The position numbers were made by a program, and so were the translations under genes. This document shows positions 1-27,372 of a stretch of DNA of 41,225 nt, piece by piece (position 1 is the first letter of the stretch; every line of letters begins with the position of its first letter). Under the pieces are notes generated by a model, which saw only the letters and a program-made list of their open reading frames with translations, was not told the origin of the DNA and ran no database searches. Source of the DNA: Anaerolineae bacterium (GTDB taxonomy: Bacteria > Chloroflexota > Anaerolineae > Aggregatilineales > Aggregatilineaceae); NCBI GenBank assembly GCA_018056405.1, contig JAGPFT010000001.1, forward strand, positions 1-41,225, given 5' to 3'.

Positions 1-90
1 GGGTTGGGGTGAGGGGGACAATTTTTCAAAGGGTCTCTCTGTTCTTCTCCGCGTCCTCGGCGGTTCCAGGACTCCCGCCCCCATCGTGAG
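1..90. repeat. Partial copy of the modular GC-rich intergenic repeat: G-tract tail, TTTTCAAAGGGTCTCT end motif and a ~60-nt module
   Basis: 31-90 aligns almost base for base with 28013-28071 (GGGTCTCTC.GTTCTTCTCC.CGTCCTC..GCG.TTC.AGGA.TC.CGCCCCCATCGTGAG). 1-17 (GGGTTGGGGTGAGGGGG) resembles the G-tails that follow the hairpins at 2459, 5265 and 29224. Confidence 0.7.
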
Positions 91-262
91 AGACACCCCT
101 CCGTCCCCTGGAGTTGCCCGCCGCCGTCATTCCAGGCACAATGATGGCAGCGCGGCGAACCGCTTCCACCGACGACACCACGCCCCGCCACCGCCACGCC
201 TGCTCTGTGCCAGAATTCGGCGGCAGCGCCCCAAGACTGCCGGCATACAGGAGATTGTCGAA

Positions 263-1804
263 ATGGCTGATTTACTACTGGGCATTGACGTAGGAACCAC
301 AGCGGCCAAAGCTGCGTTGATTGGCCAGGAGGGGCGGGTCGAAGCCGTTCACCAGGCCGGCTACCGGACGCATTATCTGAAGCCAGGGTGGGTTGAGCAA
401 CATCCTGAACACTGGTGGGACGCAGTATGCACGGCGGTGCAAGCAGTTCTCGCTCAGACGCCCGGTGCGCCTGAGCGCGTGGCTGGTTTGGCGGTTAGTT
501 CGCAAGCCCCTGCCCTGATCGCGCTCGATCAGCAGGGACAGGTGCTACGCCCTGCCCTGATCTGGATGGATCGGCGGGCCGAGGCAGAGGCCCGGCAGCT
601 CAAGGAAACCCTCGGTTTTGACCGCGTGTTCCAGATCACGGGCAACCGTCCAGACCCTTACTTCCTGGCAGCGAAGACTCTGTGGTTCAGGAACCACGAG
701 CCGCACCTGTTGGCCCAGACGCACCAGTTCGTCCAGGTGAATGGCTACATCAACTATCGCCTGACTGGGCAGTATGCGGTTGATCCCACACACGCTGCGC
801 TGATGCAGCTAGGGCATCGCGACAGCGGCGAATGGTCGGCGGAGATGTGCGAAGCGTGCGGCATAGACCCGGCTCAACTGCCGGCGTGCTGCCCTGCCCA
901 CCATGTGCTGGGAGAGGTCACTGCCAGCGCAGCGCAGGCGACAGGCTTGCGTCCGGGCACGCCGGTGATGGTGGGCATGATTGACGCGGTAGCGGCGGCT
1001 CTGGAGGCCGGCGTTACAGATACGGGAACCGCCGCCGAAATGACCGGAACCTCAACCGTTCTCATGATTCCGAACAAAAGCGACATGGCCGAGCCGAGCC
1101 TGATCGCCATTCCCCATGTGATTCCCGATGCCCATCTACTGGTGGGGGCCATCGTCGCATCGGGGGCGAGCCTCAACTGGTATTGCGAGCAGTTCGGCCT
1201 GATCGAACAGCAGGCCAGCGTCCTGCTGGATGCTGACGTATTTGATCTGCTGACACAGCAAGCTGCCAGGGTCTCGCCAGGGAGCGATGGGGTCATCTTT
1301 CTACCCTATATGATGGGCGAGCGATCCCCGCTGTGGCACACCAACGCCAGGGGCGTGTTGTTCGGGCTGTCTCTTGCGACATCGCGGGGCGCGATCATCC
1401 GGGCCATTCTGGAAGGCACGGCCTTGGCGATGCTGCACAACATTCAGACGGCGAAAGAGGCCGGAGTGACCGTGAAGGAACTGCGATCCGTCGGGGGTGG
1501 AACGCGCAGCGCCCTCTGGAACCAGATCAAGGCCGATATCCTGGGCATCCCGATTCAGTTGCCAGAAGCGCCTATCGGCGCGCCCTTCGGCGATGCCATG
1601 CTGGTCGGCATGGGCCTTGGGTTATTTCCCGATCTTCTGGACACATTGAAGCAGATCGTCCAGATCAAGACGGTGTACCAGCCCAATCCTGAGCACCACG
1701 CAGCATACCAGGCGATTTTCCACCTGTTCCGGAATCTGTACGCGCATCTCCGAGAGGACTTTGACGACGCTGCGTCCATCTACGCGACTGCGAGCACTTC
1801 ATAG
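263..1804 (+). CDS. FGGY-family carbohydrate kinase (xylulokinase/gluconokinase-like; substrate unknown)
   Basis: Part of ORF 86..1804. Motifs: LLLGIDVGTTAAKAALIG (actin-fold phosphate-1), GWVEQHPEHWW, C-terminal GGGTRSALWNQIKADILG. Start moved to ATG 263, with AGGAG at 249-253. The 86-262 extension is Arg/Pro/His-rich and begins inside a repeat. Confidence 0.85.
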   Translation: MADLLLGIDVGTTAAKAALIGQEGRVEAVHQAGYRTHYLKPGWVEQHPEHWWDAVCTAVQAVLAQTPGAPERVAGLAVSSQAPALIALDQQGQVLRPALIWMDRRAEAEARQLKETLGFDRVFQITGNRPDPYFLAAKTLWFRNHEPHLLAQTHQFVQVNGYINYRLTGQYAVDPTHAALMQLGHRDSGEWSAEMCEACGIDPAQLPACCPAHHVLGEVTASAAQATGLRPGTPVMVGMIDAVAAALEAGVTDTGTAAEMTGTSTVLMIPNKSDMAEPSLIAIPHVIPDAHLLVGAIVASGASLNWYCEQFGLIEQQASVLLDADVFDLLTQQAARVSPGSDGVIFLPYMMGERSPLWHTNARGVLFGLSLATSRGAIIRAILEGTALAMLHNIQTAKEAGVTVKELRSVGGGTRSALWNQIKADILGIPIQLPEAPIGAPFGDAMLVGMGLGLFPDLLDTLKQIVQIKTVYQPNPEHHAAYQAIFHLFRNLYAHLREDFDDAASIYATASTS

Positions 1805-3131: not shown

Positions 3132-5141
3132 ATGATCCACTTCGGTCGTGAAACGCTCGACGCGCTCCTGCGCCGCGAATGGCTCGTCACCAACGGCCTC
3201 GGCGGCTATGCCCTGGGGTCGCTGGCAGGGGCGCGCACGCGCCGTTACCACAGCCTGCTCACCGCTTCGCTCCAGCCGCCCACCCACCGCACTGTGCTCG
3301 TCGCCGATCTCGACACCTGGGTGGAAATTGACGGGCGTCGCTCGCCCCTGGTGACCCACGAATGGGCAGCGGGGGTGGTGCTGCCGGACGGCTACCGTCA
3401 CCTGGAGAGCTTCCACCTGGAGGGGACCATTCCCGTCTTCGTGTGGGGGCTGGGCGATGTGCGCCTGGTGCAGCGCATCTGGATGGCGCACGGCCAGAAC
3501 ACAACCTACGTCACGTATTCTTACGTGCGCGGCAGCGCGCACCTCAAGCTGGTCATCAAGCCGCTGTGCACCTACCGCGATCACCACAAGCTGACCAAAG
3601 GCGGCTACCCGGTGGAGGTGACGCCCCTTCCTGCGCCCTGCTTGTGCGGGGCGGGTGTGCGCGTCATCCAGCACCCGGATCGCAACGACAACGAGGGCAG
3701 CACCCTGCGTATCTTCACCAACCAGGGGGCCATTGTCCCCGATTCCGAGTGGTGGTGGTCTTTTCATCTCTCCGAAGAAAAGCGGCGCGGCCTGGGCGAC
3801 CAGGAAGACCTCTTCGCCGCAGCTTCCCTCACCGCCGAGCTAGACCGGGGCAGCACCCTGGCCCTTGTCTTCACCGCCGAAGAAGACGATCCCGCACCCT
3901 GGCACGATGCCCTGCTCGCCGAACAGCAGCGCCAGGACGCTCTGCTCGCCAGGGCCGGTCTGGACGACGCCCCCGCCTGGATTCGCCAGCTTGCCCTGGC
4001 CGCCGACCAGTTTCTCGTCACGCGCGATATAGAGGGTCAGCCGGGCAAGAGCATCCTGGCCGGCTACCCCTGGTTCAGCGATTGGGGCCGCGACACCATG
4101 ATCGCCCTGCCCGGCCTGACCCTGGCCATCGGGCGCGTCGAGGAGAGCGCCGAGATTCTGCGCACCTATGCTTGCTGCGTGGATCAGGGGATGCTGCCCA
4201 ACCGCTTCCCCGACGCCGGCAGCACGCCCGAATACAACACGGTAGACGCCACGCTGTGGTATTTCCAGGCGATCTACGCGCACTACCAGGCGGCCGGCCC
4301 CGCCGATTCGCTCTTCCAGGACTTATACCCCGTGCTGGCCGACATCCTGCGCTGGCACATTGAGGGGACGCGCTATAACATTCGCATGGACCCGGCGGAC
4401 GGCTTGCTCTTCGCAGGAGAGCCTGACCTGCAGCTCACCTGGATGGACGCCAAGATTGACGACTGGGTGGTGACGCCGCGCGTCGGCAAGGCCGTGGAGA
4501 TCAACGCGCTGTGGGTCAACGCCCTGCGCATCACCGCTGAGCTGGCCACCGCCCTGGGGCGCGACGAGGATGCCGCCCAGTACGCCGCCCTCGCCGACCG
4601 CGCTCAAGAGAGTTTCGCCCGGCGTTTCTGGTACAATGGAGGCTACCTGTACGATGTGGTGGACGGGCCAGATGGTGACGACCCCACGCTGCGCCCCAAC
4701 CAGATTTTCGCCGTCGCGCTGCCTTTCCCGCTGCTGGAAGGCGAGCGCGCGCAGGCTGTGGTAGACATTTGCGCGCGCGAATTGCTGGTCTCCTACGGGC
4801 TGCGCAGTCTGGCCCCCGACGAAAGCGAATACGCCGGGCATTATGGCGGCGATCCCTTGCAGCGCGACAGCGCCTACCACCAGGGCACGGCCTGGGCCTG
4901 GCTGCTGGGGCCGTTTGTCATCGCTCATTACCGCGTCTACGGCAAGGCCCGCACGGCGTTCAGTTACCTGGAACCGCTGGCCGACCATCTGGCCGATCAA
5001 GGGCTGGGCACGCTCGGCGAAATCTTCGACGGCGATCCGCCTCACCAGCCGCGCGGGGCGGTCGCCCAGGCATGGAGCGTGGCCGAAACGTTGCGCGCCT
5101 ATCGCGTCCTGGAGCCAGGCTTGAAGGCTGGCAAGAGTTAG
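3132..5141 (+). CDS. Glycogen debranching enzyme, amylo-alpha-1,6-glucosidase (GDE_C) type with N-terminal GDE domain
   Basis: 669 aa. Motifs: GYPWFSDWGRDTMIALPGL, LQLTWMDAK, GHYGGDPLQRDSAYHQGTAWAWLLGPF, GEIFDGDPPHQPRGAVAQAWSVAE. Confidence 0.85.
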   Translation: MIHFGRETLDALLRREWLVTNGLGGYALGSLAGARTRRYHSLLTASLQPPTHRTVLVADLDTWVEIDGRRSPLVTHEWAAGVVLPDGYRHLESFHLEGTIPVFVWGLGDVRLVQRIWMAHGQNTTYVTYSYVRGSAHLKLVIKPLCTYRDHHKLTKGGYPVEVTPLPAPCLCGAGVRVIQHPDRNDNEGSTLRIFTNQGAIVPDSEWWWSFHLSEEKRRGLGDQEDLFAAASLTAELDRGSTLALVFTAEEDDPAPWHDALLAEQQRQDALLARAGLDDAPAWIRQLALAADQFLVTRDIEGQPGKSILAGYPWFSDWGRDTMIALPGLTLAIGRVEESAEILRTYACCVDQGMLPNRFPDAGSTPEYNTVDATLWYFQAIYAHYQAAGPADSLFQDLYPVLADILRWHIEGTRYNIRMDPADGLLFAGEPDLQLTWMDAKIDDWVVTPRVGKAVEINALWVNALRITAELATALGRDEDAAQYAALADRAQESFARRFWYNGGYLYDVVDGPDGDDPTLRPNQIFAVALPFPLLEGERAQAVVDICARELLVSYGLRSLAPDESEYAGHYGGDPLQRDSAYHQGTAWAWLLGPFVIAHYRVYGKARTAFSYLEPLADHLADQGLGTLGEIFDGDPPHQPRGAVAQAWSVAETLRAYRVLEPGLKAGKS

Positions 5142-5307: not shown

Positions 5308-5376
5308 CTTGCCGGTCACTGTCTGACAACTTACTTGTGAACCCCGGAGTCTTGAGGGATTGCCTGAGGGACTTCT

Positions 5377-6003
5377 ATGACTGATGAGTCGTATCCAGTA
5401 CCCGGCTCCGCCCCGCCATCCAGCCGCGCATACCGGCTGATGCTGGGCGGAACGGTGCTGCTCTTCCTGGGCATGCTGACCGCCGCCATGCTGCTCATCC
5501 TCCTGGCCAACGCGCAGGAAGCCGGCCAGGAGTCCGATTTTGCGGCCACACTGACCGCGCTGGCCCCCGGTATGTACTTCGTCCAGTCCGACTTCGCGCC
5601 GTCGCCGGAGCCGGGCGTGGCGCTGATCAGCGGGCAGTATCCCTTCGCCCCAAGCGACGACTCGCCCCGCTTCGGCCCTGGCAACTCATGCGCCGAGCAG
5701 GTCGTCACCGGCAGCATCCTGGACAGCAATGGTCAGCCCACCGACGCCCTGACCGTGCTGGCCTGGGGTGATTATGTGGCCCCGCGCCTGTTGCTCACCG
5801 GCGAGATCGCCGGTCACGAGGCCGGTCACTGGCAGTTGGCCGTTGCAGGGGGCATTAACCGGCGGGTATGGGTACAGGTGACGGCAACGGGGCGCTACCT
5901 GTCCGCGCCGGTCGAGATTGTCTTCAGCGCCGAGGACTGCGACCGCACGCTGGCTACGGTCATCTTCGAGCAGCGCGATTCGCTGGACAACGCTGCTCCC
6001 TGA
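5377..6003 (+). CDS. Hypothetical membrane-anchored protein (single N-terminal TM, extracytoplasmic domain)
   Basis: 208 aa. Hydrophobic segment LMLGGTVLLFLGMLTAAMLLILLA. No recognisable catalytic motif. The opposite-strand ORFs look like shadows. Confidence 0.5.
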   Translation: MTDESYPVPGSAPPSSRAYRLMLGGTVLLFLGMLTAAMLLILLANAQEAGQESDFAATLTALAPGMYFVQSDFAPSPEPGVALISGQYPFAPSDDSPRFGPGNSCAEQVVTGSILDSNGQPTDALTVLAWGDYVAPRLLLTGEIAGHEAGHWQLAVAGGINRRVWVQVTATGRYLSAPVEIVFSAEDCDRTLATVIFEQRDSLDNAAP

Positions 6004-17298: not shown

Positions 17299-18834
17299 TT
17301 ATGAAGACATGCTCTGGGCCAGCGCGTCGAAAGAGGGCTGCAAGGCCGGGTAAAGACCCCTGTACACGGTGAAGAGCCGGTCGTAACGCTCGGCATTCAC
17401 CGCGTTGGGGTGATCAACCGTCCGCGTCTTGATCAGAGACACGGCTTCTTGGGCGGAAGCCCACAGTCCGCAGGCAACGCCCGCGACGATCCCCGCGCCG
17501 ACCGCGCTGGCATCCTCGCTGTGATCGAGCGTCGTCACCGGGCGCTTGAAGATGTCCGCCTGAATCTGCCGCCACACGGCACTGGACGACCCGCCCCCCG
17601 AAGCGTGAATGCGGTCGGGTTGGGCGCTGTTGCGCAGGATCAGTTCCAGTACATCGCGCAGGCTGAAGGTTACGCCCTCCATCACGCTGCGCACCATGTC
17701 CGCTTTTGAGGTGTGCAGCCCAATGCCGACGAACGTCCCCCGCGCATGGACATTGGTATAGGGGCAGCGCTCGCCCTGCAAATAGGGCAGGAACAGCAGC
17801 CCATTGGCTCCAGCGGGAGAGAGCGCAGCCTGGCAGCCCAGCAGATCATAGGCGTCAGTCTGCAGGTCTCTGGCCAGCCTCCACTCCAGCCCGCCCAGCG
17901 TATCCCGGAACCATTTCAGCGAGTTGCCCGCCGACAGGGTGACGCCCATCGCCACCCAACGCTCCGGCACAACATGGCAGAACACCTGAAGATTGGCGTC
18001 CGGGTTGTCCACAGCGTAACGGGTGCTGACCGTGACATTACCGCCGGTGCCGATCACAATGAGCACCACGTCGCTGTTGATCGCGCCGCCGCCAATCGTC
18101 TGCATCACAGCGTCTCCGCCCCCCGCGATGACCGGCGTGCCCGGCAGGAGGCCGGTTTCGGCGGCGATAGCGCCACCGACGGTGCCGGTGAACTCGCCTG
18201 ACTCAAAGGCGGGCGGAAACCACTCGCCGGGGATGTCAAGCAAGTCCATCAGACGATAGGCCCACTGGCGGGCGCGCACATCGAACAGGCCGGTGCCCGA
18301 TGCATCTGAGACATCGGTCGCCCTGTCGCCAGTCAGACGAAAGCGGAGATAGTCCTTGGGCAGCAGAACGGTCGCGATCTGCCCGTAGATCGCGGGGTCG
18401 TGATCACGCAGCCAGAGAATCTTGCCACCGGTGTAGCCGGGCAGCATGGCGTTGTTGGTATGGGCCACCAACTTACCCTTGCCGCCCACCCGCTCGTAGA
18501 TCGCCTGGCACTGCGGCGCGCTGCGTTGGTCGTTCCACAGGATGGCGGGGCGCAAGACTCGCCCCTGCCTGTCCAGCGCGACAAGGCTGTGCATCTGCCC
18601 GCTGAGGCCGACGGCCTGGATGGCAGCGGGGTCGGCCTGCGCCACAACGCGCCGGATCGACTCCTTGACCGCTACCCACCAGTCTTCGGGCTGCTGCTCC
18701 GCCCACCCCGGCTGTGGCACAGCGACCGGATATTCGCTGGACACCTTCGCCAGCACGTTCAGGTCGCGGTCCAACAGCAGGGTCTTGCAGTTGGTGGTGC
18801 CAACATCAATGGCCAGGATTAACGAGTTACTCAC
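17299..18834 (-). CDS. FGGY-family pentulose kinase (xylulokinase-like)
   Basis: ILAIDVGTTNCKTLLLD, GWAEQQPEDWW, HASGGGSSSAVWRQIQADIF. GTG 18834 has GGAG 5 nt upstream. The longest ORF begins at TTG 18870, which forms a TTGA overlap with the LacI stop. Confidence 0.85.
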   Translation of the reverse strand: MSNSLILAIDVGTTNCKTLLLDRDLNVLAKVSSEYPVAVPQPGWAEQQPEDWWVAVKESIRRVVAQADPAAIQAVGLSGQMHSLVALDRQGRVLRPAILWNDQRSAPQCQAIYERVGGKGKLVAHTNNAMLPGYTGGKILWLRDHDPAIYGQIATVLLPKDYLRFRLTGDRATDVSDASGTGLFDVRARQWAYRLMDLLDIPGEWFPPAFESGEFTGTVGGAIAAETGLLPGTPVIAGGGDAVMQTIGGGAINSDVVLIVIGTGGNVTVSTRYAVDNPDANLQVFCHVVPERWVAMGVTLSAGNSLKWFRDTLGGLEWRLARDLQTDAYDLLGCQAALSPAGANGLLFLPYLQGERCPYTNVHARGTFVGIGLHTSKADMVRSVMEGVTFSLRDVLELILRNSAQPDRIHASGGGSSSAVWRQIQADIFKRPVTTLDHSEDASAVGAGIVAGVACGLWASAQEAVSLIKTRTVDHPNAVNAERYDRLFTVYRGLYPALQPSFDALAQSMSS

Positions 18835-18866
18835 AGCGACTCCGTTCTCAGGCGGCGCAGAGGCCC

Positions 18867-19871
18867 TCAAATCCGGCGGCAGGAACGGCGGATGATCAGG
18901 CTGTCGCGCAGTACGATCCTGTGCGGCGGCTGGCGGCGCTTGTTGATCAGGTCCACCAGCAGAATCATCGCCATGCTGCCGATCTCATAGCTGGGCTGGG
19001 CGATAGTGGTGAGCGTGATCATCGCCGAGCAGGGAATATCGTCGTAGCCGACAATGGAGATGTCGTCGGGAATCCGGTATCCCTTCTCCTCAAGGGCCTG
19101 GCTGGCACCGAAAGCCATCAGGTCATTGGAGGCAAACACCGCCGTGAAAGGAAGCTCATCCCGCTCCAGGAACTTCTGCATCAGGTGATAGGCCCCTTCC
19201 TGCGTGGTATCCGCGCAGACTACCATCTCTTCGCGGTAGGGGACGCCCAGTTCCTCCAGACCACGCCGGTAGCCCGCCAGGCGCGAGATGGACGTGCTGA
19301 AATGGGGCGGGCCGCAAATGAACAGGATGTCGCGGTGGCCCAGGTTGAGCAGGTAAGTGGTCGCCTGGTAAGCTCCTTCTTCGTTATTGGAGGTCACCGA
19401 GCAGATATTCTTCAGATTCACTTCACGATCCAGAAAGACAATCGGGAACTGGCGGTCCACCAGGTCTTTGACCAGCGGGTTCACCGATTCCAGGAACGGG
19501 ATGTAGATGATGCCATCCACACCCTGGTCTATGAGGTGCGTGAAGTGACGTTTTTCCGCCTCAAACGCGCCGTTGGCGTTGCAGAGAATGACCTCGGCAT
19601 CGTGCACGCGAGCCAGGGCAGTGATACCCTTGATTAGCAGGGGAAAGTATGGGTTGGTGATGTCGGGGATCACCAACCCGACCCGGAGTTCCTGCTTGTG
19701 CTGAGCGGTATTCTTTAGCTCGTAGTGCAGTTCCTCGATGGCCGCCAGCACAGCCTGGCGGTTGAACTCGCTGACCGAAGGCTCGTTGTTGATCACCCGC
19801 GAGACAGTGGCGACCGACACGCAAGCTCTTTCAGCAACGTCCTTCATGGTAGGGGTTTTGTGATTGGCCAT
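18867..19871 (-). CDS. LacI-family transcriptional regulator
   Basis: 334 aa. HTH TMKDVAERACVSVATVSRVIN and a sugar-binding effector domain (VGLVIPDITNPYF, IVGYDDI). Confidence 0.9.
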   Translation of the reverse strand: MANHKTPTMKDVAERACVSVATVSRVINNEPSVSEFNRQAVLAAIEELHYELKNTAQHKQELRVGLVIPDITNPYFPLLIKGITALARVHDAEVILCNANGAFEAEKRHFTHLIDQGVDGIIYIPFLESVNPLVKDLVDRQFPIVFLDREVNLKNICSVTSNNEEGAYQATTYLLNLGHRDILFICGPPHFSTSISRLAGYRRGLEELGVPYREEMVVCADTTQEGAYHLMQKFLERDELPFTAVFASNDLMAFGASQALEEKGYRIPDDISIVGYDDIPCSAMITLTTIAQPSYEIGSMAMILLVDLINKRRQPPHRIVLRDSLIIRRSCRRI

Positions 19872-20004
19872 AATCCCTCTGCACTGGCGCTGCGCGCGCT
19901 ATACCTGAGGAGTCTAGATAAAACCGCAAGGCCGGGCGCTCCCCGACAGCGACGCACTGCCGGCAAGCCGTCGCACAGATTGCTCGCCCAGCCGCTATAA
20001 GAGG

Positions 20005-20152
20005 CCGTTTGAGAAGCCTTATACTTGCCTCTTCCCCTCATCCCCAGCCCTTCCCCCACGAGAGGGGAAGGGAGAAGTTCGTTGACCCTAAGCCCCTCCC
20101 TCCTTGTGGGGGAGGGGTTTGAGGTGGGGGGAAAAAACAGCTTCTCAAATGG
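20005..20152. mobile_element. MITE-like 148-bp element with 13-nt terminal inverted repeats, carrying two hairpin/G-tract units
   Basis: Left end CCGTTTGAGAAGC (20005-20017); right end GCTTCTCAAATGG (20140-20152), 12/13 complementary. Inside are an inverted unit CCCTTCCCC-cacgaga-GGGGAAGGG (20048-20072) with a C-rich tail, and CCCCTCCC...GGGAGGGG (20093-20117) with a G tail. No coding capacity. Confidence 0.55.
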
Positions 20153-20161
20153 TCTCTAAAG

Positions 20162-20839
20162 TTACCACACATACTTCTTATAATCGTTCACCAGCAGGTA
20201 GGATGGCTCCTCGTCCTCAATGATCTGCGGGAAGCGCGGCTGGTCTTCGTAGAATACGTTGTCGGTCTGATCGTCATTCACCGAACTGACCTCGCCCACC
20301 AAGACGGTGCCCGCTCCGGCCTCACCATAGAACTTGTGGAAGACGCCCGGCTCCAGAAAGATGCTCTCGCCGGGTGTCAGCACAACCTTGCCGCTCGCGG
20401 GAACCGTCCGCGCAATGGAGTCAATGCGCACAGTCACCGGTTTGTCAGTCAGGCGGAAGTCGCCATCGCCCAGGAACAGTTCGATAACCAGGTTGCCGCC
20501 GCCCCGGTTGATGATGTCCTCCAGTTTGAGGCGGTGGGTGTGCAGGGGCGTCACCTGATTTTCCTCGACGATGAGCACCTTCTCGCAGTAGGCTTTGCGC
20601 GTCTTGTGGACGATGCCATTGCGCAAATTGAAATTAGTCAGGCCGACGCGCTCGAAGTCCCCGCTGCCGAAGTCCGTAATGTCCCAGCCCAGTCCACAGG
20701 CCACGATCTCGGCCACTTCGTCACCTTTGCCGCGCCACTGGTCGGGCGACCAGTACGCCCAGGGCGGCAGCGGGAACTGCCTGGCTTGCAGGAAAGCGAT
20801 GGCGTGGGCGATAGCCCGGTTGATCTCACTGCGTTTCAT
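20162..20839 (-). CDS. D-lyxose/D-mannose ketol-isomerase-family cupin (long form, 225 aa)
   Basis: MKRSEINRAIAHAIAFLQARQF...WDITDFGSGDF...VTPLHTHRLKLEDIINRGGG...PGVFHKFYGE fits the Lyx_isomer cupin family. ATG 20839 is preceded by GGAGGAG. The 20840-20941 extension in the ORF track has no family counterpart. Confidence 0.7.
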   Translation of the reverse strand: MKRSEINRAIAHAIAFLQARQFPLPPWAYWSPDQWRGKGDEVAEIVACGLGWDITDFGSGDFERVGLTNFNLRNGIVHKTRKAYCEKVLIVEENQVTPLHTHRLKLEDIINRGGGNLVIELFLGDGDFRLTDKPVTVRIDSIARTVPASGKVVLTPGESIFLEPGVFHKFYGEAGAGTVLVGEVSSVNDDQTDNVFYEDQPRFPQIIEDEEPSYLLVNDYKKYVW

Positions 20840-20954
20840 GAGCGCACTCCTCCGGCGGACGCCGATACTCGAGACGATAAGCCCTATGGCCGGTTCTCCT
20901 CGGTATGCTTTCATTGTATGCAAAGCAGGGATCGAAATCAAGTAACATTGTGAT

Positions 20955-20969
20955 AATTTTCAGAAAATT
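20955..20969. promoter_or_regulatory. Perfect 15-bp palindrome AATTTTCaGAAAATT in the AT-rich divergent control region (candidate operator)
   Basis: 7+1+7 palindrome. A further inverted pair GAGAAAT...ATTTCTC lies at 20980-21004. GAAAATTG (20963-20970) is complementary to CAATTTTC (21026-21033). Confidence 0.35.
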
Positions 20970-21021
20970 GAGATTGGTTGAGAAATATACTATTTCAATT
21001 TCTCCAAGTTACGCAAATTGA

Positions 21022-21050
21022 TTGACAATTTTCCTGAGTTCGTTTTAAAT
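21022..21050 (+). promoter_or_regulatory. Candidate promoter TTGACA-17-TTAAAT for the transketolase/ABC operon
   Basis: TTGACA at 21022-21027, a 17-nt spacer, TTAAAT at 21045-21050, about 50 nt upstream of ATG 21099. Confidence 0.5.
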
Positions 21051-21098
21051 AGAAGATGAAGCCAATCACCATTAGCGTGCCTAGCACCAAGGACTGCC

Positions 21099-22007
21099 AT
21101 GCCAGCATCCTCCAACAAGAGACCGCTGGACCCGGCTGCCGATGCCGCGCTGCTGCGCGAGCTAAAGCTGGCGGCGATCCAGCAGCGGCGCAAGCTGCTC
21201 GCCCTGGGGCGCACCCTGCGCATCCGCCTGCATTATGGCGCGACGATGAGCAGCGTGGAGATTCTGACTGCGCTGTACAGGGTGTGGCTGCGCATTGATC
21301 CAGAGAATGCGGGCTGGCCGGAACGTGATCGCTTCGTCTTGAGCAAGGGCCACGCTGCCCCGGCTCTCTATGTGACCCTGGCCATGCGCGGCTTCTTCCC
21401 TGAAGACGAGTTCGCCAATTTCCGGCGGCTGCACAGTATCCTGCAGGGACATCCCGACCGCAACAAGACCCCCGGCGTGGACTGCTCGACCGGCTCGTTG
21501 GGTCAGGGTTTTCCGGTAGCGTGCGGGATGGCCCTCGGCGCGAAGGCTGACCACGCCCCCTTCCGCGTCTATACGCTGATCAGTGATGGCGAGTGCAACG
21601 AGGGATCGGTCTGGGAAGCAGCCCTCATCGCCGCCAACCTGAAGCTGGACACCCTGACTGTGCTGGTGGACTGGAACCGCAAGTCATCCTATGGGCCGAT
21701 GGAGGGCCGCAACGACATCGAGCCGCTGGCCGACAAGTGGCGCGCCTTTGGCTGGGCCGTGTTCGAGTGCGATGGCCATGACTTCGTGTCGCTCACGCGC
21801 GCACTGGCGGCAGCAGAACGAGTCAGCGGCAGGCCGGTGGTGCTGCTCTGCCACACTGTCAAGGGCAAAGGGATTCCCTTCGCCGAGACGCACCCGACGC
21901 GCTCCAATTTCGCGTTGACGCCTGAGCAAGACCAGGAAGCCGTTGCCTATCTGGACACTCTAGAGACGGAAATCACGGATGAGTCCTTCGCCCCAAGACA
22001 TCACTGA
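21099..22007 (+). CDS. Transketolase, N-terminal (TPP/pyrophosphate-binding) subunit of a split enzyme
   Basis: 302 aa. SKGHAAPALY, GHPDRNKTPGVDCSTGSLGQGFP, TPP motif ISDGECNEGSVWEA. Confidence 0.88.
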   Translation: MPASSNKRPLDPAADAALLRELKLAAIQQRRKLLALGRTLRIRLHYGATMSSVEILTALYRVWLRIDPENAGWPERDRFVLSKGHAAPALYVTLAMRGFFPEDEFANFRRLHSILQGHPDRNKTPGVDCSTGSLGQGFPVACGMALGAKADHAPFRVYTLISDGECNEGSVWEAALIAANLKLDTLTVLVDWNRKSSYGPMEGRNDIEPLADKWRAFGWAVFECDGHDFVSLTRALAAAERVSGRPVVLLCHTVKGKGIPFAETHPTRSNFALTPEQDQEAVAYLDTLETEITDESFAPRHH

Positions 22008-22920
22008 AGCCTACAGCGAGGCTCTGGTAGAGGTAGGTGCAGCCTACCCCAACGTGTTCGTCCTGGATGCGGACATCGCCGATTCGTGCCGCACCGAGCC
22101 ATTCTACAAAGCCTTCCCTGATCGCGCCTTCGATCTGGGGGTCGCCGAGCAAAGCCTGCCGACCATCGCCGCCGGGCTGGCGCTCGTCGGCAAAATCCCC
22201 TTCTACAACAGCTTCGCCGTATTCGCCGTCTCGCGGGGCGTGGACATGATCCGCCAGTCGGTGGCCTACAACCGCGCCAACGTCAAGATCGTGGGCCACG
22301 CAGCGGGCCAGTCAATGGGCTACACCGGCCCCAGCCATCACACCCTGGAAGACTTCGCCATCCTGCGGTCGCTTCCTCACCTGGTGATTCTCAGCCCGTG
22401 CGACGCGGTCGAGGCTCGGCAGATGGTCTGGGCGATGGCCGAGCACGACGGGCCGATGTACCTGCGCCTGGTTCGCGCAGCGGTGCCTCATGTCCACGCG
22501 CCGGATTACCGATTTGTGATCGGGCGGACGGAACGGCTGCGCGAAGGGGGCGATCTCTCGATCTTCGTCACGGGCGATCTGGTCGTGCTGGCGCTGGAAC
22601 TGCATGACGCGCTGCGCGCCCAGGGAATCAGCGCCCAGGTCGTCAACGTGCCCACGCTCAAGCCACTGCCTGCCGAGGAGATCGTCAGACACGGCAGCCT
22701 GACCAAGGGCGCGCTCACCCTCGAAGACCATAACATCTTCGGCGGGCTGGGCAGCGCAGTGGCGGAGATCTACGCGGAGCACCTGCGCAAGCCGGTGAAG
22801 CGGTTGGGCATTCCCGACACGTTCACCGAATCGGACGACGTTGCTGTCCTGCGCAGTGCCTACGGCATTAACCTGAACCATGCTCTACAGCAGGCGGCCA
22901 GCATCTTGAACAGGAAGTAG
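21979..22920 (+). CDS. Transketolase, C-terminal (pyrimidine-binding) subunit of a split enzyme
   Basis: 313 aa, overlapping the N-subunit gene by 29 nt. EAYSEALVEVGAAYPNVFVLDADI, DLGVAEQSL, GPSHHTLEDFAILRSLP. Confidence 0.88.
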   Translation: MSPSPQDITEAYSEALVEVGAAYPNVFVLDADIADSCRTEPFYKAFPDRAFDLGVAEQSLPTIAAGLALVGKIPFYNSFAVFAVSRGVDMIRQSVAYNRANVKIVGHAAGQSMGYTGPSHHTLEDFAILRSLPHLVILSPCDAVEARQMVWAMAEHDGPMYLRLVRAAVPHVHAPDYRFVIGRTERLREGGDLSIFVTGDLVVLALELHDALRAQGISAQVVNVPTLKPLPAEEIVRHGSLTKGALTLEDHNIFGGLGSAVAEIYAEHLRKPVKRLGIPDTFTESDDVAVLRSAYGINLNHALQQAASILNRK

Positions 22921-23020
22921 CAAAGGAGGAGAGACGGAGGCGACACATACGTGCGATCAGCCGGCGAGTTTTTCTCCCTTACGGCGTTCATCTTAAGAAA
23001 GTGACGAGGAGATCAAGACA

Positions 23021-24874
23021 ATGAAGAAGTACCTCATTCTAGTGGCAGTCCTGTGTTTGGGGATGGCTCCCCTCCTGGCTGGCGTGCAGGCATCCCCGGC
23101 CCGCGCGCAAGAAGATTACACTATCGGCATTGTGCTGAAGTCGTTCTCCAATCCCTTCTGGCTGATGGCCAAGGCCGCCGCTGAAGCCGAAGCCGAACGG
23201 CTGGGCGTCGAAGCCATCGTGCTCGGCATCACCGAGGAAGGCGACTACGCTGAGCAGGTGGCCCAGATCGAAAACCTGGTGGCGCGCGGCGCTGACCTGA
23301 TCGTGGTCGTCCCGGCGGAGGCTTCGGCCCTGGTACCGGCGGTCGAGGCGGCTATCGAGCAGGGCGTGCCGGTCATCAACCTCGACTCGCCCATCGAGAC
23401 GGATAAGGTCGTCAGCTACATCGGCAGCGATAACGTCGAGGGCGGACGCATGGCCGGCCACTTCATCGCCGAGCAGTTGGGCGGCGAAGGCAAGGTCGCC
23501 GTGCTGCGCGGACGCCTGGGCAACCCCGTTGAACTCCAGCGCTACACCGGCTTCACCGAAGCCCTGGCTGAGTACCCCGGCCTTGAACTGGTCGCTGAGG
23601 GCGTCGCTAACTGGGAAGCTGACCAGGGCTACACCGTCATGGAAGACTTCCTCACCGCTCACCCGGACATCCAGGCCGTCTTCGCTGAGTCCGACCGCAT
23701 GATCCTCGGCGCAGCCCAGGCCGCCGCCGCTGCCAACCGCGACGACATCATCCTCGTCGGGTTGGATGGCATCGTCGAAGCCCTGCGCGCCGTCGCCGAT
23801 GGCACCATCTCCGCTGACGTGGCTCAGCGCCCTGACCTGATGGGCGAGTACGCCGTCAAGTACGGCCTCGAATTCCTGCAGACGGGCAAGATTGACCCGG
23901 TCATCACCACCCCCATGACCCTCGCCTTGCCCGATAACGTCGAACCCCTCATCGCTGCCTGGGAAGCCCTGGGCTTCACCGAGCCTGGTGAAGGGAAGCC
24001 AGCCGAAGACTTCACCATCGGCATTGTGCTGAAGTCGTTCTCCAATCCCTTCTGGCTGATGGCCAAGACCGCCGCTGAAGCCGAAGCCGAACGGCTGGGC
24101 GTCGAAGCCATCGTGCTCGGCATCACCGAGGAAGGCAACTACGCTGAGCAGGTGGCTCAGATCGAGGACCTGGTGGCGCGCGGCGCTGACCTGATCGTGG
24201 TCGTCCCGGCGGAGGCTTCGGCCCTGGTACCGGCGGTCGAGGCGGCTATCGAGCAGGGCGTGCCGGTCATCAACCTCGACTCGCCCATCGAGACGGATAA
24301 GGTCGTCAGCTACATCGGCAGCGATAACGTCGAGGGCGGACGCATGGCCGGCCACTTCATCGCCGAGCAGTTGGGCGGCGAAGGCAAGGTCGCCGTGCTG
24401 CGCGGACGCCTGGGCAACCCCGTTGAACTCCAGCGCTACACCGGCTTCACCGAAGCCCTGGCTGAGTACCCCGGCCTTGAACTGGTCGCTGAGGGCGTCG
24501 CTAACTGGGAAGCTGACCAGGGCTACACCGTCATGGAAGACTTCCTCACCGCTCACCCGGACATCCAGGCCGTCTTCGCTGAGTCCGACCGCATGATCCT
24601 CGGCGCAGCCCAGGCCGCCGCCGCTGCCAACCGCGACGACATCATCCTCGTCGGGTTGGATGGCATCGTCGAAGCCCTGCGCGCCGTCGCCGATGGCACC
24701 ATCTCCGCTGACGTGGCTCAGCGCCCTGACCTGATGGGCGAGTATGCCGTCAAGTACGGCCTCGAATTCCTGCAGACGGGCAAGATTGACCCGGTCATCA
24801 CCACCCCCATGACCCTCGCCTTGCCCGATAACGTCGAACCCCTCATCGCTGCCTGGGAAGCCCTGGGGTTCTAG
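23021..24874 (+). CDS. Sugar ABC transporter substrate-binding protein (ribose-binding-protein fold) with two tandem, near-identical binding domains
   Basis: 617 aa. Signal peptide MKKYLILVAVLCLGMAPLLAGVQASPARA, then two 289-aa copies of TIGIVLKSFSNPFWLMAK...VINLDSPI...YIGSDNVEGGRMAG...VAQRPDLMG joined by TEPGEGKPA. GAGGAG lies 9 nt upstream. Confidence 0.85.
   Translation: MKKYLILVAVLCLGMAPLLAGVQASPARAQEDYTIGIVLKSFSNPFWLMAKAAAEAEAERLGVEAIVLGITEEGDYAEQVAQIENLVARGADLIVVVPAEASALVPAVEAAIEQGVPVINLDSPIETDKVVSYIGSDNVEGGRMAGHFIAEQLGGEGKVAVLRGRLGNPVELQRYTGFTEALAEYPGLELVAEGVANWEADQGYTVMEDFLTAHPDIQAVFAESDRMILGAAQAAAAANRDDIILVGLDGIVEALRAVADGTISADVAQRPDLMGEYAVKYGLEFLQTGKIDPVITTPMTLALPDNVEPLIAAWEALGFTEPGEGKPAEDFTIGIVLKSFSNPFWLMAKTAAEAEAERLGVEAIVLGITEEGNYAEQVAQIEDLVARGADLIVVVPAEASALVPAVEAAIEQGVPVINLDSPIETDKVVSYIGSDNVEGGRMAGHFIAEQLGGEGKVAVLRGRLGNPVELQRYTGFTEALAEYPGLELVAEGVANWEADQGYTVMEDFLTAHPDIQAVFAESDRMILGAAQAAAAANRDDIILVGLDGIVEALRAVADGTISADVAQRPDLMGEYAVKYGLEFLQTGKIDPVITTPMTLALPDNVEPLIAAWEALGF
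23111..24871 (+). repeat. Tandem direct duplication, period 894 bp (copy 1 at 23111-23977, copy 2 at 24005-24871, 27-nt linker)
   Basis: By eye there are about 10 nucleotide differences in 867 bp, and 8 of them lie in the first ~165 nt of the unit. About 570 nt (23276-23847 versus 24170-24741) are identical. The duplication is in frame. Confidence 0.95.
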
Positions 24875-24890
24875 AATCACCCACCCTGAT

Positions 24891-24922
24891 TGCCTGCTGG
24901 CCCGTTATGCGACCAGCAGGCA
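24891..24922 (+). terminator. 10-bp hairpin after the SBP gene (intra-operon attenuator or mRNA stabiliser)
   Basis: TGCCTGCTGG-cccgttatgcga-CCAGCAGGCA. There is no U-tract. Confidence 0.4.
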
Positions 24923-24988
24923 GTCCTCTCACCATGGCAGTGAGCCGGGAAAAGTATCTTTCCAAGTTTTCAAGGAGAGGCACAGCAG

Positions 24989-25534
24989 ATGGCTATCAGC
25001 CGAGCCGAGTATGAAGCGGCGCGCAATCGCACCCTGGAAACCTATCAACGCGCTGCTATCACGATCACCGCAGCCGAGAAGGACGCCCTCGAGGTGGCAG
25101 ATTTCGGGCTGGGTGAACTGGAGCAGATCGGCGTTGAGCTGGTCACTTATATCAACACCGGGCGCGTGTGCGCCAAGGAAGTCGTCCTGTTTCCGGGCCA
25201 GATCTGCCCGCAGCACCGTCACCCGGCAGTTGGCGATCAGCCAGGGAAAGAAGAGACGTTCCGCTGTCGGTGGGGCAAGGTGTACCTGTATGTCGAAGGC
25301 CCCGCCACGACTCAGCCGCAGGCGACCGTGCCCGCCCATCGGCGGGCGCACTTCACCGTCTGGCACGAGATCATCCTGGAGCCGGGCGATCAGCACACAG
25401 TACCCCCTAACACACTGCATTGGTTCCAGGGCGGGCCAGAGGGCGCAGTGCTGTCCGAGTTCTCCACGCCCAGCACAGACTCCGCCGACATCTTCACCGA
25501 TCCTGATATCACCAGGCAGCCGGTGATATACTGA
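24989..25534 (+). CDS. D-lyxose/D-mannose ketol-isomerase-family cupin (short form, 181 aa)
   Basis: VADFGLGELEQIGVELVTYINTGRVCAKEVVLFPGQICPQHRHP...GKEETFRCRWGKVYLY...HWFQGG...STDSADIFTDP fits the short Lyx_isomer cupins. AAGGAGAGG lies upstream. Confidence 0.65.
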   Translation: MAISRAEYEAARNRTLETYQRAAITITAAEKDALEVADFGLGELEQIGVELVTYINTGRVCAKEVVLFPGQICPQHRHPAVGDQPGKEETFRCRWGKVYLYVEGPATTQPQATVPAHRRAHFTVWHEIILEPGDQHTVPPNTLHWFQGGPEGAVLSEFSTPSTDSADIFTDPDITRQPVIY

Positions 25535-25546
25535 CCGACAGCGCCA

Positions 25547-26590
25547 ATGGTGAGTCTATCATCGCGCTCAAGGCCGCCGGAAAGGAACCAGGCATTGTTG
25601 ACACAGAAAAGGTGGCAAGCATTGGCCAGTTTCCGCATCGAAAAGAGCTTGCTTGCTGCTGTCCGGCATCTTCTCAGGCAGCGCACGCTGTTCATGCTGA
25701 TCGTCCTGTGCGTGGTAGTCGGCTATCTGCTGCCCGTGTTTCTGACCACGCAGAATCTCCTGAATGTGCTGCGCCAGGTGTCTATCACGAGCATCGTCGC
25801 TGTCGGCATGACCTTTGTGATCATCACGGGCGGTATTGACATCTCGGTGGGTTCGACCGTTGCGCTGTCCGGCGTTGTGGTAGCCTATGCGCTCCGCGAA
25901 GGATACGGCCTGGAAATCTCAATCGTCGCGGCGCTGATCGTGAGCACCGCCGCCGGGCTGCTGAATGGAGCGCTTGTTTCCTACGGCAAGGTCATGGCTT
26001 TCGTGGCAACGCTGGGCACCATGAACCTGTTCCGGGGCACGGCCCTGATCGTCACCAACGGGCAGGCGATCTGGGGGCTGCCCAAGGATTTCGTGCGCAT
26101 CGGCACCGGCTATGTCCTGGGAATCCCCATCCCAGTGATCATCACCTTCGTGATCTATATCTCCGGGCACCTGCTGCTGACTCGTTTCACGTTTGGGCGC
26201 TATACGCTGGCCATCGGCGGAGACGAGGAGGCGGCGCGGCTCTGCGGCGTGCGGGTGCAGCGGATCAAGTTGCTGACCTATGGCTTCTGCGGCCTCATGT
26301 CCGGCATCTCCGGGGTCGTGCTGGCCGCCAGGCTGGGCAGCGGACAGCCCAGCACCGGCACCGGCTACGAGCTGACGGCGATAGCCGCCGCCGTCATCGG
26401 CGGCAACTCCCTGTCGGGCGGGCACGGCACCGTGTGGGGCACCCTGCTGGGCGCGCTCATCCTGGGCGTGGTCAGCAATGCCCTCAACCTGTGGGGAGTC
26501 GCGTCATTCTACCAGACCGTTGTGACAGGCCTCATCGTCCTGACTGCCGTACTCGTGGACAAGCTGAGAAGAAAACCCAACAGCAAGTGA
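25547..26590 (+). CDS. Sugar ABC transporter permease (RbsC-like, BPD_transp_2)
   Basis: 347 aa. NLLNVLRQVSITSIVAVGMTFVIITGGIDISVGS and IGGNSLSGGHGTVWGTLLGALILGVV. Confidence 0.87.
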   Translation: MVSLSSRSRPPERNQALLTQKRWQALASFRIEKSLLAAVRHLLRQRTLFMLIVLCVVVGYLLPVFLTTQNLLNVLRQVSITSIVAVGMTFVIITGGIDISVGSTVALSGVVVAYALREGYGLEISIVAALIVSTAAGLLNGALVSYGKVMAFVATLGTMNLFRGTALIVTNGQAIWGLPKDFVRIGTGYVLGIPIPVIITFVIYISGHLLLTRFTFGRYTLAIGGDEEAARLCGVRVQRIKLLTYGFCGLMSGISGVVLAARLGSGQPSTGTGYELTAIAAAVIGGNSLSGGHGTVWGTLLGALILGVVSNALNLWGVASFYQTVVTGLIVLTAVLVDKLRRKPNSK

Positions 26591-26601
26591 GGGACAGAAT
26601 C

Positions 26602-27372
26602 ATGCTGGCAAGCGATGTTGACGCGAAGAAAGCGGTCGTCCGCATGGAGCACGTCACCAAGCACTTCGGTGGCGTATACGCCGTCAATGACGTGAGTTTT
26701 GACCTGTATGAAGGCGAGATTCTGGCGCTTGTCGGCGATAACGGGGCCGGCAAATCCACGCTGGTCAAGATTCTATCGGGGGCGCACCAGGCCGACGAAG
26801 GGACGATCTACATTCGCGGCAAGCAGGTGAAGATAGACAGCCCCATGGCTGCTCAGCAGCTTGGCATCGAGACCCTGTACCAGAACCTGGCGCTGATGAA
26901 CAACCTCGACATCACAGCGAATATCTTCATGGGCAGGGAAATCCGCCATCCTCTATTGGGATGGTTGGGCCTGATGAACCTGCGCGAGATGCGCGCCAAT
27001 GCGATGAACCTGCTCAACAGCTTCGACCTGGCAATTGACGATGTAGGCCGCAGCGTGAACTACCTTTCCGGCGGTCAGCGACAGATGGTCGCCATCAGCC
27101 GGGCCGTGTACTTCGAGGCGCAGATCATCATCATGGACGAGCCGACGGCGGCGCTGGGCGTAGCCGAGACGCGCAAGGTGTACGATTTTATCGAGAAACT
27201 GCGCGCCAATAAGCTGTCGGTGATCATCATCTCGCACAACATCAACGAGGTCTTCAACATCGCCGACCGTTTCATGATCCTCAAAACAGGGCGGCTGGTG
27301 GGCATCAAGCGCCGCGAAGAAACCAGCGTTGATGAGATCGTCACCATGATCATCTCCGGGCAAAAGGTATGA
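26602..27372 (+). CDS. Sugar ABC transporter ATP-binding protein, single nucleotide-binding domain (256 aa)
   Basis: Walker A GDNGAGKST, signature LSGGQRQ, Walker B IIIMDEPTAALG. ATG 26602 chosen because the ORF-track start at 26434 lies inside the permease gene. Confidence 0.88.
   Translation: MLASDVDAKKAVVRMEHVTKHFGGVYAVNDVSFDLYEGEILALVGDNGAGKSTLVKILSGAHQADEGTIYIRGKQVKIDSPMAAQQLGIETLYQNLALMNNLDITANIFMGREIRHPLLGWLGLMNLREMRANAMNLLNSFDLAIDDVGRSVNYLSGGQRQMVAISRAVYFEAQIIIMDEPTAALGVAETRKVYDFIEKLRANKLSVIIISHNINEVFNIADRFMILKTGRLVGIKRREETSVDEIVTMIISGQKV

Follow-up and report, generated by a model that had tools for sequence, protein, structure and literature searches.

A nine-gene sugar island of uncultured Chloroflexota with two lyxose isomerases, a XylB-clade kinase and a two-subunit transketolase from a branch with altered active-site residues

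Enzymes that isomerise D-lyxose and phosphorylate xylulose are already known. They include the D-lyxose/D-mannose isomerase EcSI of Escherichia coli O157:H7 (Z5688; PDB 3KMH, 3MPB), the isomerases TsLI of Thermofilum sp. (7NZO) and YdaE of Bacillus subtilis (2Y0O), and the xylulokinase XylB (TIGR01312; 2ITM). A route for D-apiose that runs through a transketolase was reportedly described by Carter et al. in 2018, with a kinase called AplK or ApuK and the transketolase AptA/AptB. A growth-validated D-apiose cluster is known from E. coli SE15, where the kinase gene is named aplK and the transketolase genes aptA and aptB (PMC13001218). The sulfoquinovose transketolase (sulfo-TK) pathway SqvD/SqwGH/SqwI places two isomerases and a split transketolase in one locus (PMC9594981). 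In a limited full-text literature search we found no characterised D-lyxose locus that couples the isomerase with a dedicated transketolase. Here we describe a divergent sugar island at positions 17299-27372 of contig JAGPFT010000001.1 from an Anaerolineae bacterium; the whole stretch of DNA that was analysed, 41,225 nucleotides long, is called the window. As its isomerisation and phosphorylation enzymes are of known kinds, most of the island is ordinary. The part most worth experiment is its two-subunit transketolase, which belongs to an unstudied, widespread branch with an altered active site.

We put the probability at roughly 0.6 that this is a LacI-controlled island for a free aldose of lyxo or manno configuration, most simply D-lyxose, which is degraded through xylulose 5-phosphate (Xu5P) with a dedicated transketolase. 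Uptake would be through a CUT2 ATP-binding cassette (ABC) importer, in which a binding protein with two domains works with a single permease and an ATPase with one domain. The conversion of D-lyxose to D-xylulose would fall to either or both of the cupin isomerases, which look redundant, and the XylB-clade kinase would phosphorylate D-xylulose to Xu5P. The two-subunit transketolase, the first gene of the plus-strand operon, would feed Xu5P into the pentose-phosphate network, and its preferred donor and acceptor may differ from the textbook pairs. The LacI protein would repress the island. D-lyxose is the best substrate candidate. The sequences directly show what the genes are, the families to which they belong, that the module is conserved and how the active site differs; both the actual sugar and the reaction of the island transketolase are ones that we infer. 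The simple route from D-lyxose through D-xylulose to Xu5P had already been proposed in a preliminary description of this DNA, and it holds, with D-lyxose-type isomerases and a XylB-clade kinase.

Gene identities were taken from a listing of open reading frames (ORFs) and from Pfam and NCBIfam profile scans of the window, and these scans recovered every gene that had been listed before for 17299-27372. The nine-gene island is real and serves the uptake and breakdown of a sugar in uncultured Chloroflexota of anaerobic digesters. Its source genome (G000) is a metagenome-assembled genome (MAG) of 574 contigs, 80% complete. In a scan of one genome per species, all nine genes were found with order and orientation kept in two further MAGs, L008 and L010, labelled Caldilineaceae and Chloroflexia. 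A third MAG labelled Anaerolineaceae, L007, also carries the module, with a contig cut inside the LacI gene, so that the kinase is not visible, and with only a remnant of the gene for the short isomerase. The island proteins are 56-90% identical to the copies in these three MAGs. The module is patchily distributed, since the island transketolase was not found in same-order relatives of the source genome among the sampled genomes. Metagenomes of anaerobic digesters, sludge, wastewater and sediment, from at least a dozen studies, contain near-identical copies of the island.

Both cupins belong to the lyxose isomerase family, as the preliminary description had assumed, on the evidence of PF07385 (curated cut-off 20.8 bits) and of structure matches. 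The first of them, LyxL (20162-20839, minus strand), had been called long. Its 259-amino-acid (aa) ORF starts too early, with the Pfam match beginning at residue 35 and an ATG at 20839, and the protein has an ordinary length of 225 aa. LyxL is of the EcSI type (D-lyxose/D-mannose isomerase), scores 298 bits with PF07385 over the whole model, and aligns end to end with 3KMH/3MPB (3.6e-56), the cupin H-x-H...E...H metal motifs included. It differs from EcSI in falling under the NCBIfam equivalog cut-off (253.9 vs 350) and in its genomic partners, a XylB-type kinase and a transketolase. The second cupin, LyxS (181 aa; 24989-25534, plus strand), is a short D-lyxose isomerase of the YdaE/Thermofilum type. 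Its PF07385 match is weak, 24.1 bits, yet above the cut-off, and it can be aligned over about 160-175 residues with TsLI (7NZO, 1.5e-70) and YdaE (2Y0O, 4e-65), including the HRHP, E and HWF segments that contain the cupin His/Glu motifs. Unlike TsLI and YdaE, it is a second, apparently redundant isomerase within a transporter operon. A whole-genome scan found exactly two PF07385 members in the source genome, LyxL and LyxS, and LyxL is the sole full-length copy of its type there. By family, both cupins are predicted to be bona fide D-lyxose isomerases.

The state of lyxS in L007, the nearest relative, bears on the roles of the two enzymes. Between the binding-protein and permease genes of that MAG, lyxS (about 5364-5455) has suffered an internal deletion that left no more than 14 codons at either end. 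In L007 the short isomerase can be dispensed with. Because lyxS is a remnant there and the remainder of the island is intact, LyxL and LyxS look redundant, rather than catalysing two obligatory steps.

Two isomerases and a split transketolase are also the layout of the sulfo-TK pathway (PMC9594981), and the island could by analogy work largely independently of its kinase and cut a hexose stepwise into C2 units. An aldohexose would be isomerised to a ketohexose and cleaved by the transketolase, and the resulting aldotetrose would be isomerised to a ketotetrose and cleaved again. We regard such a scheme as very improbable. The sulfo-TK isomerases are of other families than those of the island, namely PF02952 and PF02502 (PMC9594981). 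The island contains a conserved XylB-clade kinase, and the lyxS deletion in L007 would be intolerable where two isomerases are needed. The window scans found no sulfosugar-specific genes (sulfoquinovosidase, SqvB, reductase or exporter). Membership of the sulfo-TK pathway itself was ruled out, as the isomerase families differ and its marker genes were not found in the window.

The FGGY sugar kinase (17299-18870, minus strand) is encoded by an ORF of 523 aa with Pfam matches from residue 18 (FGGY_N 232.6 bits, FGGY_C 122.5 bits). It passes the XylB equivalog cut-off of TIGR01312 with 505.6 bits against 380.25, and its best PDB match is 2ITM, the E. coli xylulokinase (4.3e-90). In a quick FGGY kinase tree of 14 rows, the island kinase and its orthologues from L008 and L010 are sister to a group of E. 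coli XylB and the genome's own best XylB, on contig C136, with a support of 94 in the Shimodaira-Hasegawa-like approximate likelihood ratio test (SH-aLRT). The C136 copy, 44% identical to the island kinase, adjoins a xylose isomerase homologue. Unlike such xylA-linked XylB proteins, the island kinase has no xylA beside it. Because this separate xylA-xylB pair exists on C136, the island kinase would be a second XylB-clade protein, specific to the island. In the genome, XylB-like FGGY paralogs number at least nine (C136, C23, C366, C98 and window 86-1804 are among the sites). Five FGGY paralogs score over the XylB cut-off, and the C136 copy alone stands next to a xylose isomerase homologue.

The transketolase is encoded by two genes on the plus strand that overlap by 29 nt. 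The N subunit (21099-22007; PF00456, 159 bits) carries the thiamine diphosphate (ThDP)-binding domain, and the C subunit (21979-22920) has the pyrimidine-binding and C-terminal domains (PF02779, 114 bits; PF02780, 82.5 bits). Among solved structures, the N subunit is best matched by the split transketolase of Carboxydothermus hydrogenoformans (PDB 6YAK), with 2.3e-75. The source genome also has a full-length housekeeping transketolase on contig C469 (511.9 bits) and a second split pair on contig C68 (L093, 6062-9988), which has the canonical Trp-His motif and stands beside an aldehyde dehydrogenase. Because of these two other enzymes, the island transketolase is an accessory paralog. The C68 pair is located at a contig end, upstream of polysaccharide-synthesis genes.

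To compare residues, we aligned the island enzyme with E. coli TktA, 69 other split transketolases and AptAB, and the positions below follow E. coli numbering. In the E. coli enzyme the acceptor aldehyde is hydrogen-bonded by His26 and His261, and Ser385 touches the substrate phosphate (PMC5073344). Arg358 is a phosphate ligand, and Asp469 reads the C2-hydroxyl of the acceptor, which corresponds to C4 of the donor (PMC5073344 and general transketolase literature). In the D469T variant the salt bridge of Arg91 is gone, the acceptor preference is shifted and Arg91 is free for substrate contacts (PMC5073344). The island enzyme keeps the cofactor and core catalytic residues His26, His66, His100, Asp155, Asn185, Asp381, Glu411 and His473, as well as the phosphate ligands Ser385 and Arg520. 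In having two subunits and these cofactor residues, it resembles 6YAK and the housekeeping split enzymes. It differs from them around the substrate. The Trp-His dipeptide that contains the His261 equivalent, present in AptA and in all 69 other split enzymes, is Arg-Ser-Asn in the island (motif ...PTRSNFALT), and both Arg358 and Asp469 are replaced by Thr. Arg91, which is Cys in 19/25 sampled split enzymes, is kept by the island clade. The Asp at aligned position 469 is also missing in many ordinary split transketolases, where Leu is found in 52 of the 69. A loss of His461, seen in a first alignment, was dropped, as a second alignment puts an invariant His one residue upstream.

These substitutions are not peculiar to the island. 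A search of a 5.8-billion-protein collection gave at least 120 clusters per subunit at 61% identity or more, and all of them share the substrate-channel signature. Position 261 is Ser, Pro or Ala and never His; the next residue is Asn (110) or His (10), and the preceding one is Lys or Arg (103). The motif around position 261 comes in the subtypes TRSNF, TKPNILL and KAHILL. Position 358 is Thr, Pro, Ala or Glu, and position 469 is Thr or Ala. Arg91, Ser385, His473 and Arg520 are invariant in the clade, and His26, His66, His100, Asp155, Asn185, Glu411 and His473 are kept in at least 119/120 clusters. In a tree of 78 rows, the island enzyme and three orthologues form a fully supported clade with a stem of 0.98 substitutions per site. 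Because at least 120 clusters conserve the ThDP, metal and core catalytic residues together with Ser385 and Arg520, the island transketolase is predicted to be a working ThDP enzyme. It probably still binds a phosphorylated sugar, and the substrate channel of the clade, judged by its residues, appears to differ from that of textbook transketolases. Ser385 and Arg520 also speak against the stepwise hexose scheme considered above, for which the loss of Arg358 could be counted in favour, as it might suit non-phosphorylated substrates.

The suspicion that this is not a routine transketolase, voiced in the preliminary description, stood in the form of a distinct clade with changed substrate-channel residues. 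The link to D-apiose by which it had been argued did not. If the D-apiose transketolase route, with its isomerase, apulose kinase and AptAB, were present here in variant form, the cupins would supply the ketose. The plan is indeed shared with the E. coli SE15 cluster, where an RbsB-fold binding protein serves ABC uptake, a ketose is formed, and a split transketolase stands with an FGGY kinase and a divergent regulator (PMC13001218). The kinase, however, groups with XylB, a grouping that the preliminary description had itself named among the findings that would refute the idea, and belongs to another FGGY subfamily than AplK, to which it is 26% identical. AplK is glycerol-kinase-like (GlpK model 495 bits, XylB 195 bits) and lies across the FGGY tree from the island kinase with 100% support, grouped with the E. 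coli FGGY kinase L096, which is below the XylB cut-off. We take L096 to be GlpK. With the island subunits, AptA shares 42% identity and AptB 37%, against 45-57% for housekeeping split transketolases of other phyla, and AptAB falls outside the island clade in the 78-row tree, so the two transketolases are non-orthologous. AptAB also differs at Asp381, Ser385 and Arg520, which the island enzyme keeps, and AptA retains the Trp-His, which is missing from the island enzyme. Between the binding proteins of the island and of the E. coli apiose cluster the identity is 30%, and both cupins are close to D-lyxose isomerases. Even a variant of the apiose route is therefore extremely improbable in our view. 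The island as a D-apiose pathway was ruled out by comparison with aplK, aptA and aptB of E. coli SE15, on identity, trees and active-site signature.

Several points weigh against D-lyxose degradation through Xu5P. A transketolase of its own is not required to turn D-lyxose into Xu5P, yet the island transketolase heads its operon and is conserved in all copies of the module. In nature, D-lyxose is a rare sugar. Because five paralogs of the genome exceed the XylB cut-off, that cut-off alone leaves the substrate of the kinase unfixed. Since the transketolase clade has lost Arg358, Asp469 and the Trp-His partner of His26 at the acceptor carbonyl, its residue pattern argues for something other than a plain enzyme of Xu5P and ribose 5-phosphate.

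The main rival explanation, possible if unlikely, keeps the same overall logic: the sugar would be another rare aldose, and the transketolase clade would have specialised in a non-canonical ketose phosphate. Candidates are L-ribose/L-ribulose and D-talose/D-tagatose, pairs that enzymes of the lyxose isomerase family interconvert as well, and mannose-configured heptoses are conceivable. An enzyme lacking Asp469 could take donors that depart from D-threo in their configuration or substitution at C4, for example (3S,4S) ketose phosphates, and the transketolase would then replace an epimerase or aldolase step. The consistent change of Asp469 to Thr/Ala, of Arg358 to Thr/Pro and of Trp-His261 to [K/R]-[S/P/A]-[N/H] in at least 120 clusters favours this explanation, as does the long and fully supported stem of the clade. 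An engineered variant of a Geobacillus transketolase reportedly carries a change at the Asp469 equivalent. Engineered Geobacillus transketolase yields (3S,4S) ketoses (PMC7814890), and D469T alone is enough to shift the acceptor preference of the E. coli enzyme and to free Arg91 (PMC5073344), the residue that is invariant in the clade. Members of the clade also stand beside other sugar isomerases and another FGGY kinase, in L009 and in genome G592. On the other side, both island isomerases are closest to enzymes that have D-lyxose as their best substrate, the kinase is in the XylB clade, and the change at Asp469 alone is not diagnostic, given the Leu of 52/69 ordinary split transketolases.

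A stronger version of the same idea would make the island transketolase a new functional class, defined by [K/R]-[S/P/A]-[N/H] where other enzymes have Trp-His261, by the absence of Arg358, by Thr/Ala at 469 and by a free Arg91. Such an enzyme would take a ketose phosphate that ordinary transketolases refuse, for example an L-erythro (3S,4S) or C4-modified one, and the clusters that contain it would represent undescribed rare-sugar pathways in which a transketolase takes the place of an epimerase or aldolase step. We consider this version doubtful and the more speculative of the two. The substitutions in the substrate channel do fall at positions that protein engineers alter to change transketolase specificity. 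Should the specificity of the clade prove distinct, rare-ketose synthesis would gain a natural source of transketolases, and the clade would mark unannotated sugar pathways in Chloroflexota, a phylum abundant in anaerobic digesters.

The clade is not tied to lyxose isomerases. In L009 (189-8600), its member stands beside a xylose-isomerase-like TIM-barrel protein, CUT1 permeases, a GFO/IDH/MocA oxidoreductase and a major facilitator superfamily transporter. The locus in G592 (L215, G592:C218, 1305-15268) contains an FGGY kinase, a FAD-linked oxidase, two xylose-isomerase-like TIM barrels, a racemase-like protein and two sulfatases. As these two members sit in other sugar clusters, the clade recurs beside modules of isomerase and kinase generally, not beside lyxose isomerases specifically. 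Only 1 of the 400 sampled genomes of the same class had the clade, and it was absent from all 400 sampled across the phylum. This tally counts four unpublished genomes (G227, G038, G272 and G173), on which none of our specific claims depends. A scan of metagenome contigs with generic transketolase peptides returned only ordinary split transketolases, with at most 54% identity. The clade is large and common in metagenomes, and it is rare in sequenced genomes.

Regarding uptake, the plus-strand operon encodes a putative transporter of the CUT2 (ribose-type) kind, with a Peripla_BP_4 binding protein and a BPD_transp_2 permease. It departs from the usual CUT2 importers in two respects: the binding protein is doubled, and the ATPase has a single domain, where the usual one has about 500 aa and two domains. 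The gene reported before as a substrate-binding protein (23021-24874) does encode one; it is, however, no single-domain unit. Its product of 617 aa is an in-frame fusion with one signal peptide and two near-identical binding domains, seen as two Peripla_BP_4 stretches. The two copies (23111-23973 and 24005-24867) differ by 9 mismatches and are separated by a linker of 31 nt, and the nearest structures are ribose-binding proteins (2IOY, 9.2e-58). The same fusion is present in L007 (3351-5246), with 631 aa and two Peripla_BP_4 domains. The copies are near-identical within each genome and about 10% diverged between the source genome and L007. The linkers differ as well, with TEPGEGKPA in the island and an acidic, Glu-rich one in L007. 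This suggests concerted evolution or independent duplications of the binding domain.

The doubled domain was followed in metagenome assemblies. A contig from an independent digester run (X1, record 7, 23123-24046) spans copy 1, the linker and copy 2, and the depth of the repeat unit is raised in three metagenome runs. Gaps in contig cover over 24355-24690 are as expected of collapsed repeats and give no sign of absence. The many short joints of run X2, with sides below 30 nt, were left out of account. In a biofilm metatranscriptome (run X16), two contigs match 22994-23519 with 99-100% identity at a depth of 2, on the binding-protein gene only. This is a weak hint that the gene is transcribed in situ. 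Elsewhere in the genome, two further adjacent pairs of RbsB-like domains, at C503:3029-4735 and C90:474-2141, are 32-42% identical to the island domain, and the C90 pair is only about 7 nt apart. The genome may thus contain further tandem or fused binding proteins.

The permease (25547-26590, plus strand; PF02653, 145 bits) is RbsC/AraH-like and scores 305.9 bits with the ribose permease model, under its cut-off of 398. The ATPase (26602-27372, plus strand) has 256 aa with one ABC_tran nucleotide-binding domain, and it matches only the first half of the RbsA/YtfR/AlsA models of about 500 aa. Its ATG at 26602 is preceded by GAGGGA. The short ATPase type is also found in L007, by an ABC_tran scan, and in L010, by a tblastn match.

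The two arms of the island diverge from one AT-rich region, as had been described before. It measures 259 bp (20840-21098) and contains the promoters of both arms and a candidate operator; the GC content of 20001-21000 is 56.6%, against 62-65% around it. A promoter-like TTGATT-17-TACAAT lies on the minus strand at 20941-20913, ahead of lyxL. Upstream of the transketolase operon there is a TTGACA -35 element at about 21022, and TTGACA is likewise found upstream of the operon in L007, L008 and L010. A TTTCAGAAA core lies at about 20958-20966, and the same three MAGs have one or two copies of it ahead of the -35 element. The LacI-family repressor (18867-19871, minus strand; LacI helix-turn-helix 63.5 bits, with Peripla_BP_1/3) would bind and repress at these candidate TTTCAGAAA sites. 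Its sequence reached no NCBIfam equivalog cut-off. The LacI gene overlaps the start of the kinase gene by 4 nt, and the two genes are co-transcribed.

A spacer of 290 bp between the LacI and LyxL genes contains a repeated element. Over the hairpin-rich stretch 20000-20140, the summed contig depth in three metagenomes is 313-779, compared with about 10-50 in the flanks, and many contigs end there. On account of this depth and of the contig ends, the element is highly repeated in these communities, in the manner of miniature inverted-repeat transposable elements or repetitive extragenic palindromes (MITE/REP-like).

The window scan found no further catabolic enzyme inside the island, and both flanks are unrelated operons. 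Upstream in the window there are a glycogen-debranching-enzyme-like glycoside hydrolase (GDE_N/GDE_C) at 3132-5141 and a second FGGY kinase at 86-1804. A LacI/Opp-type transporter operon separates the island from these two genes.

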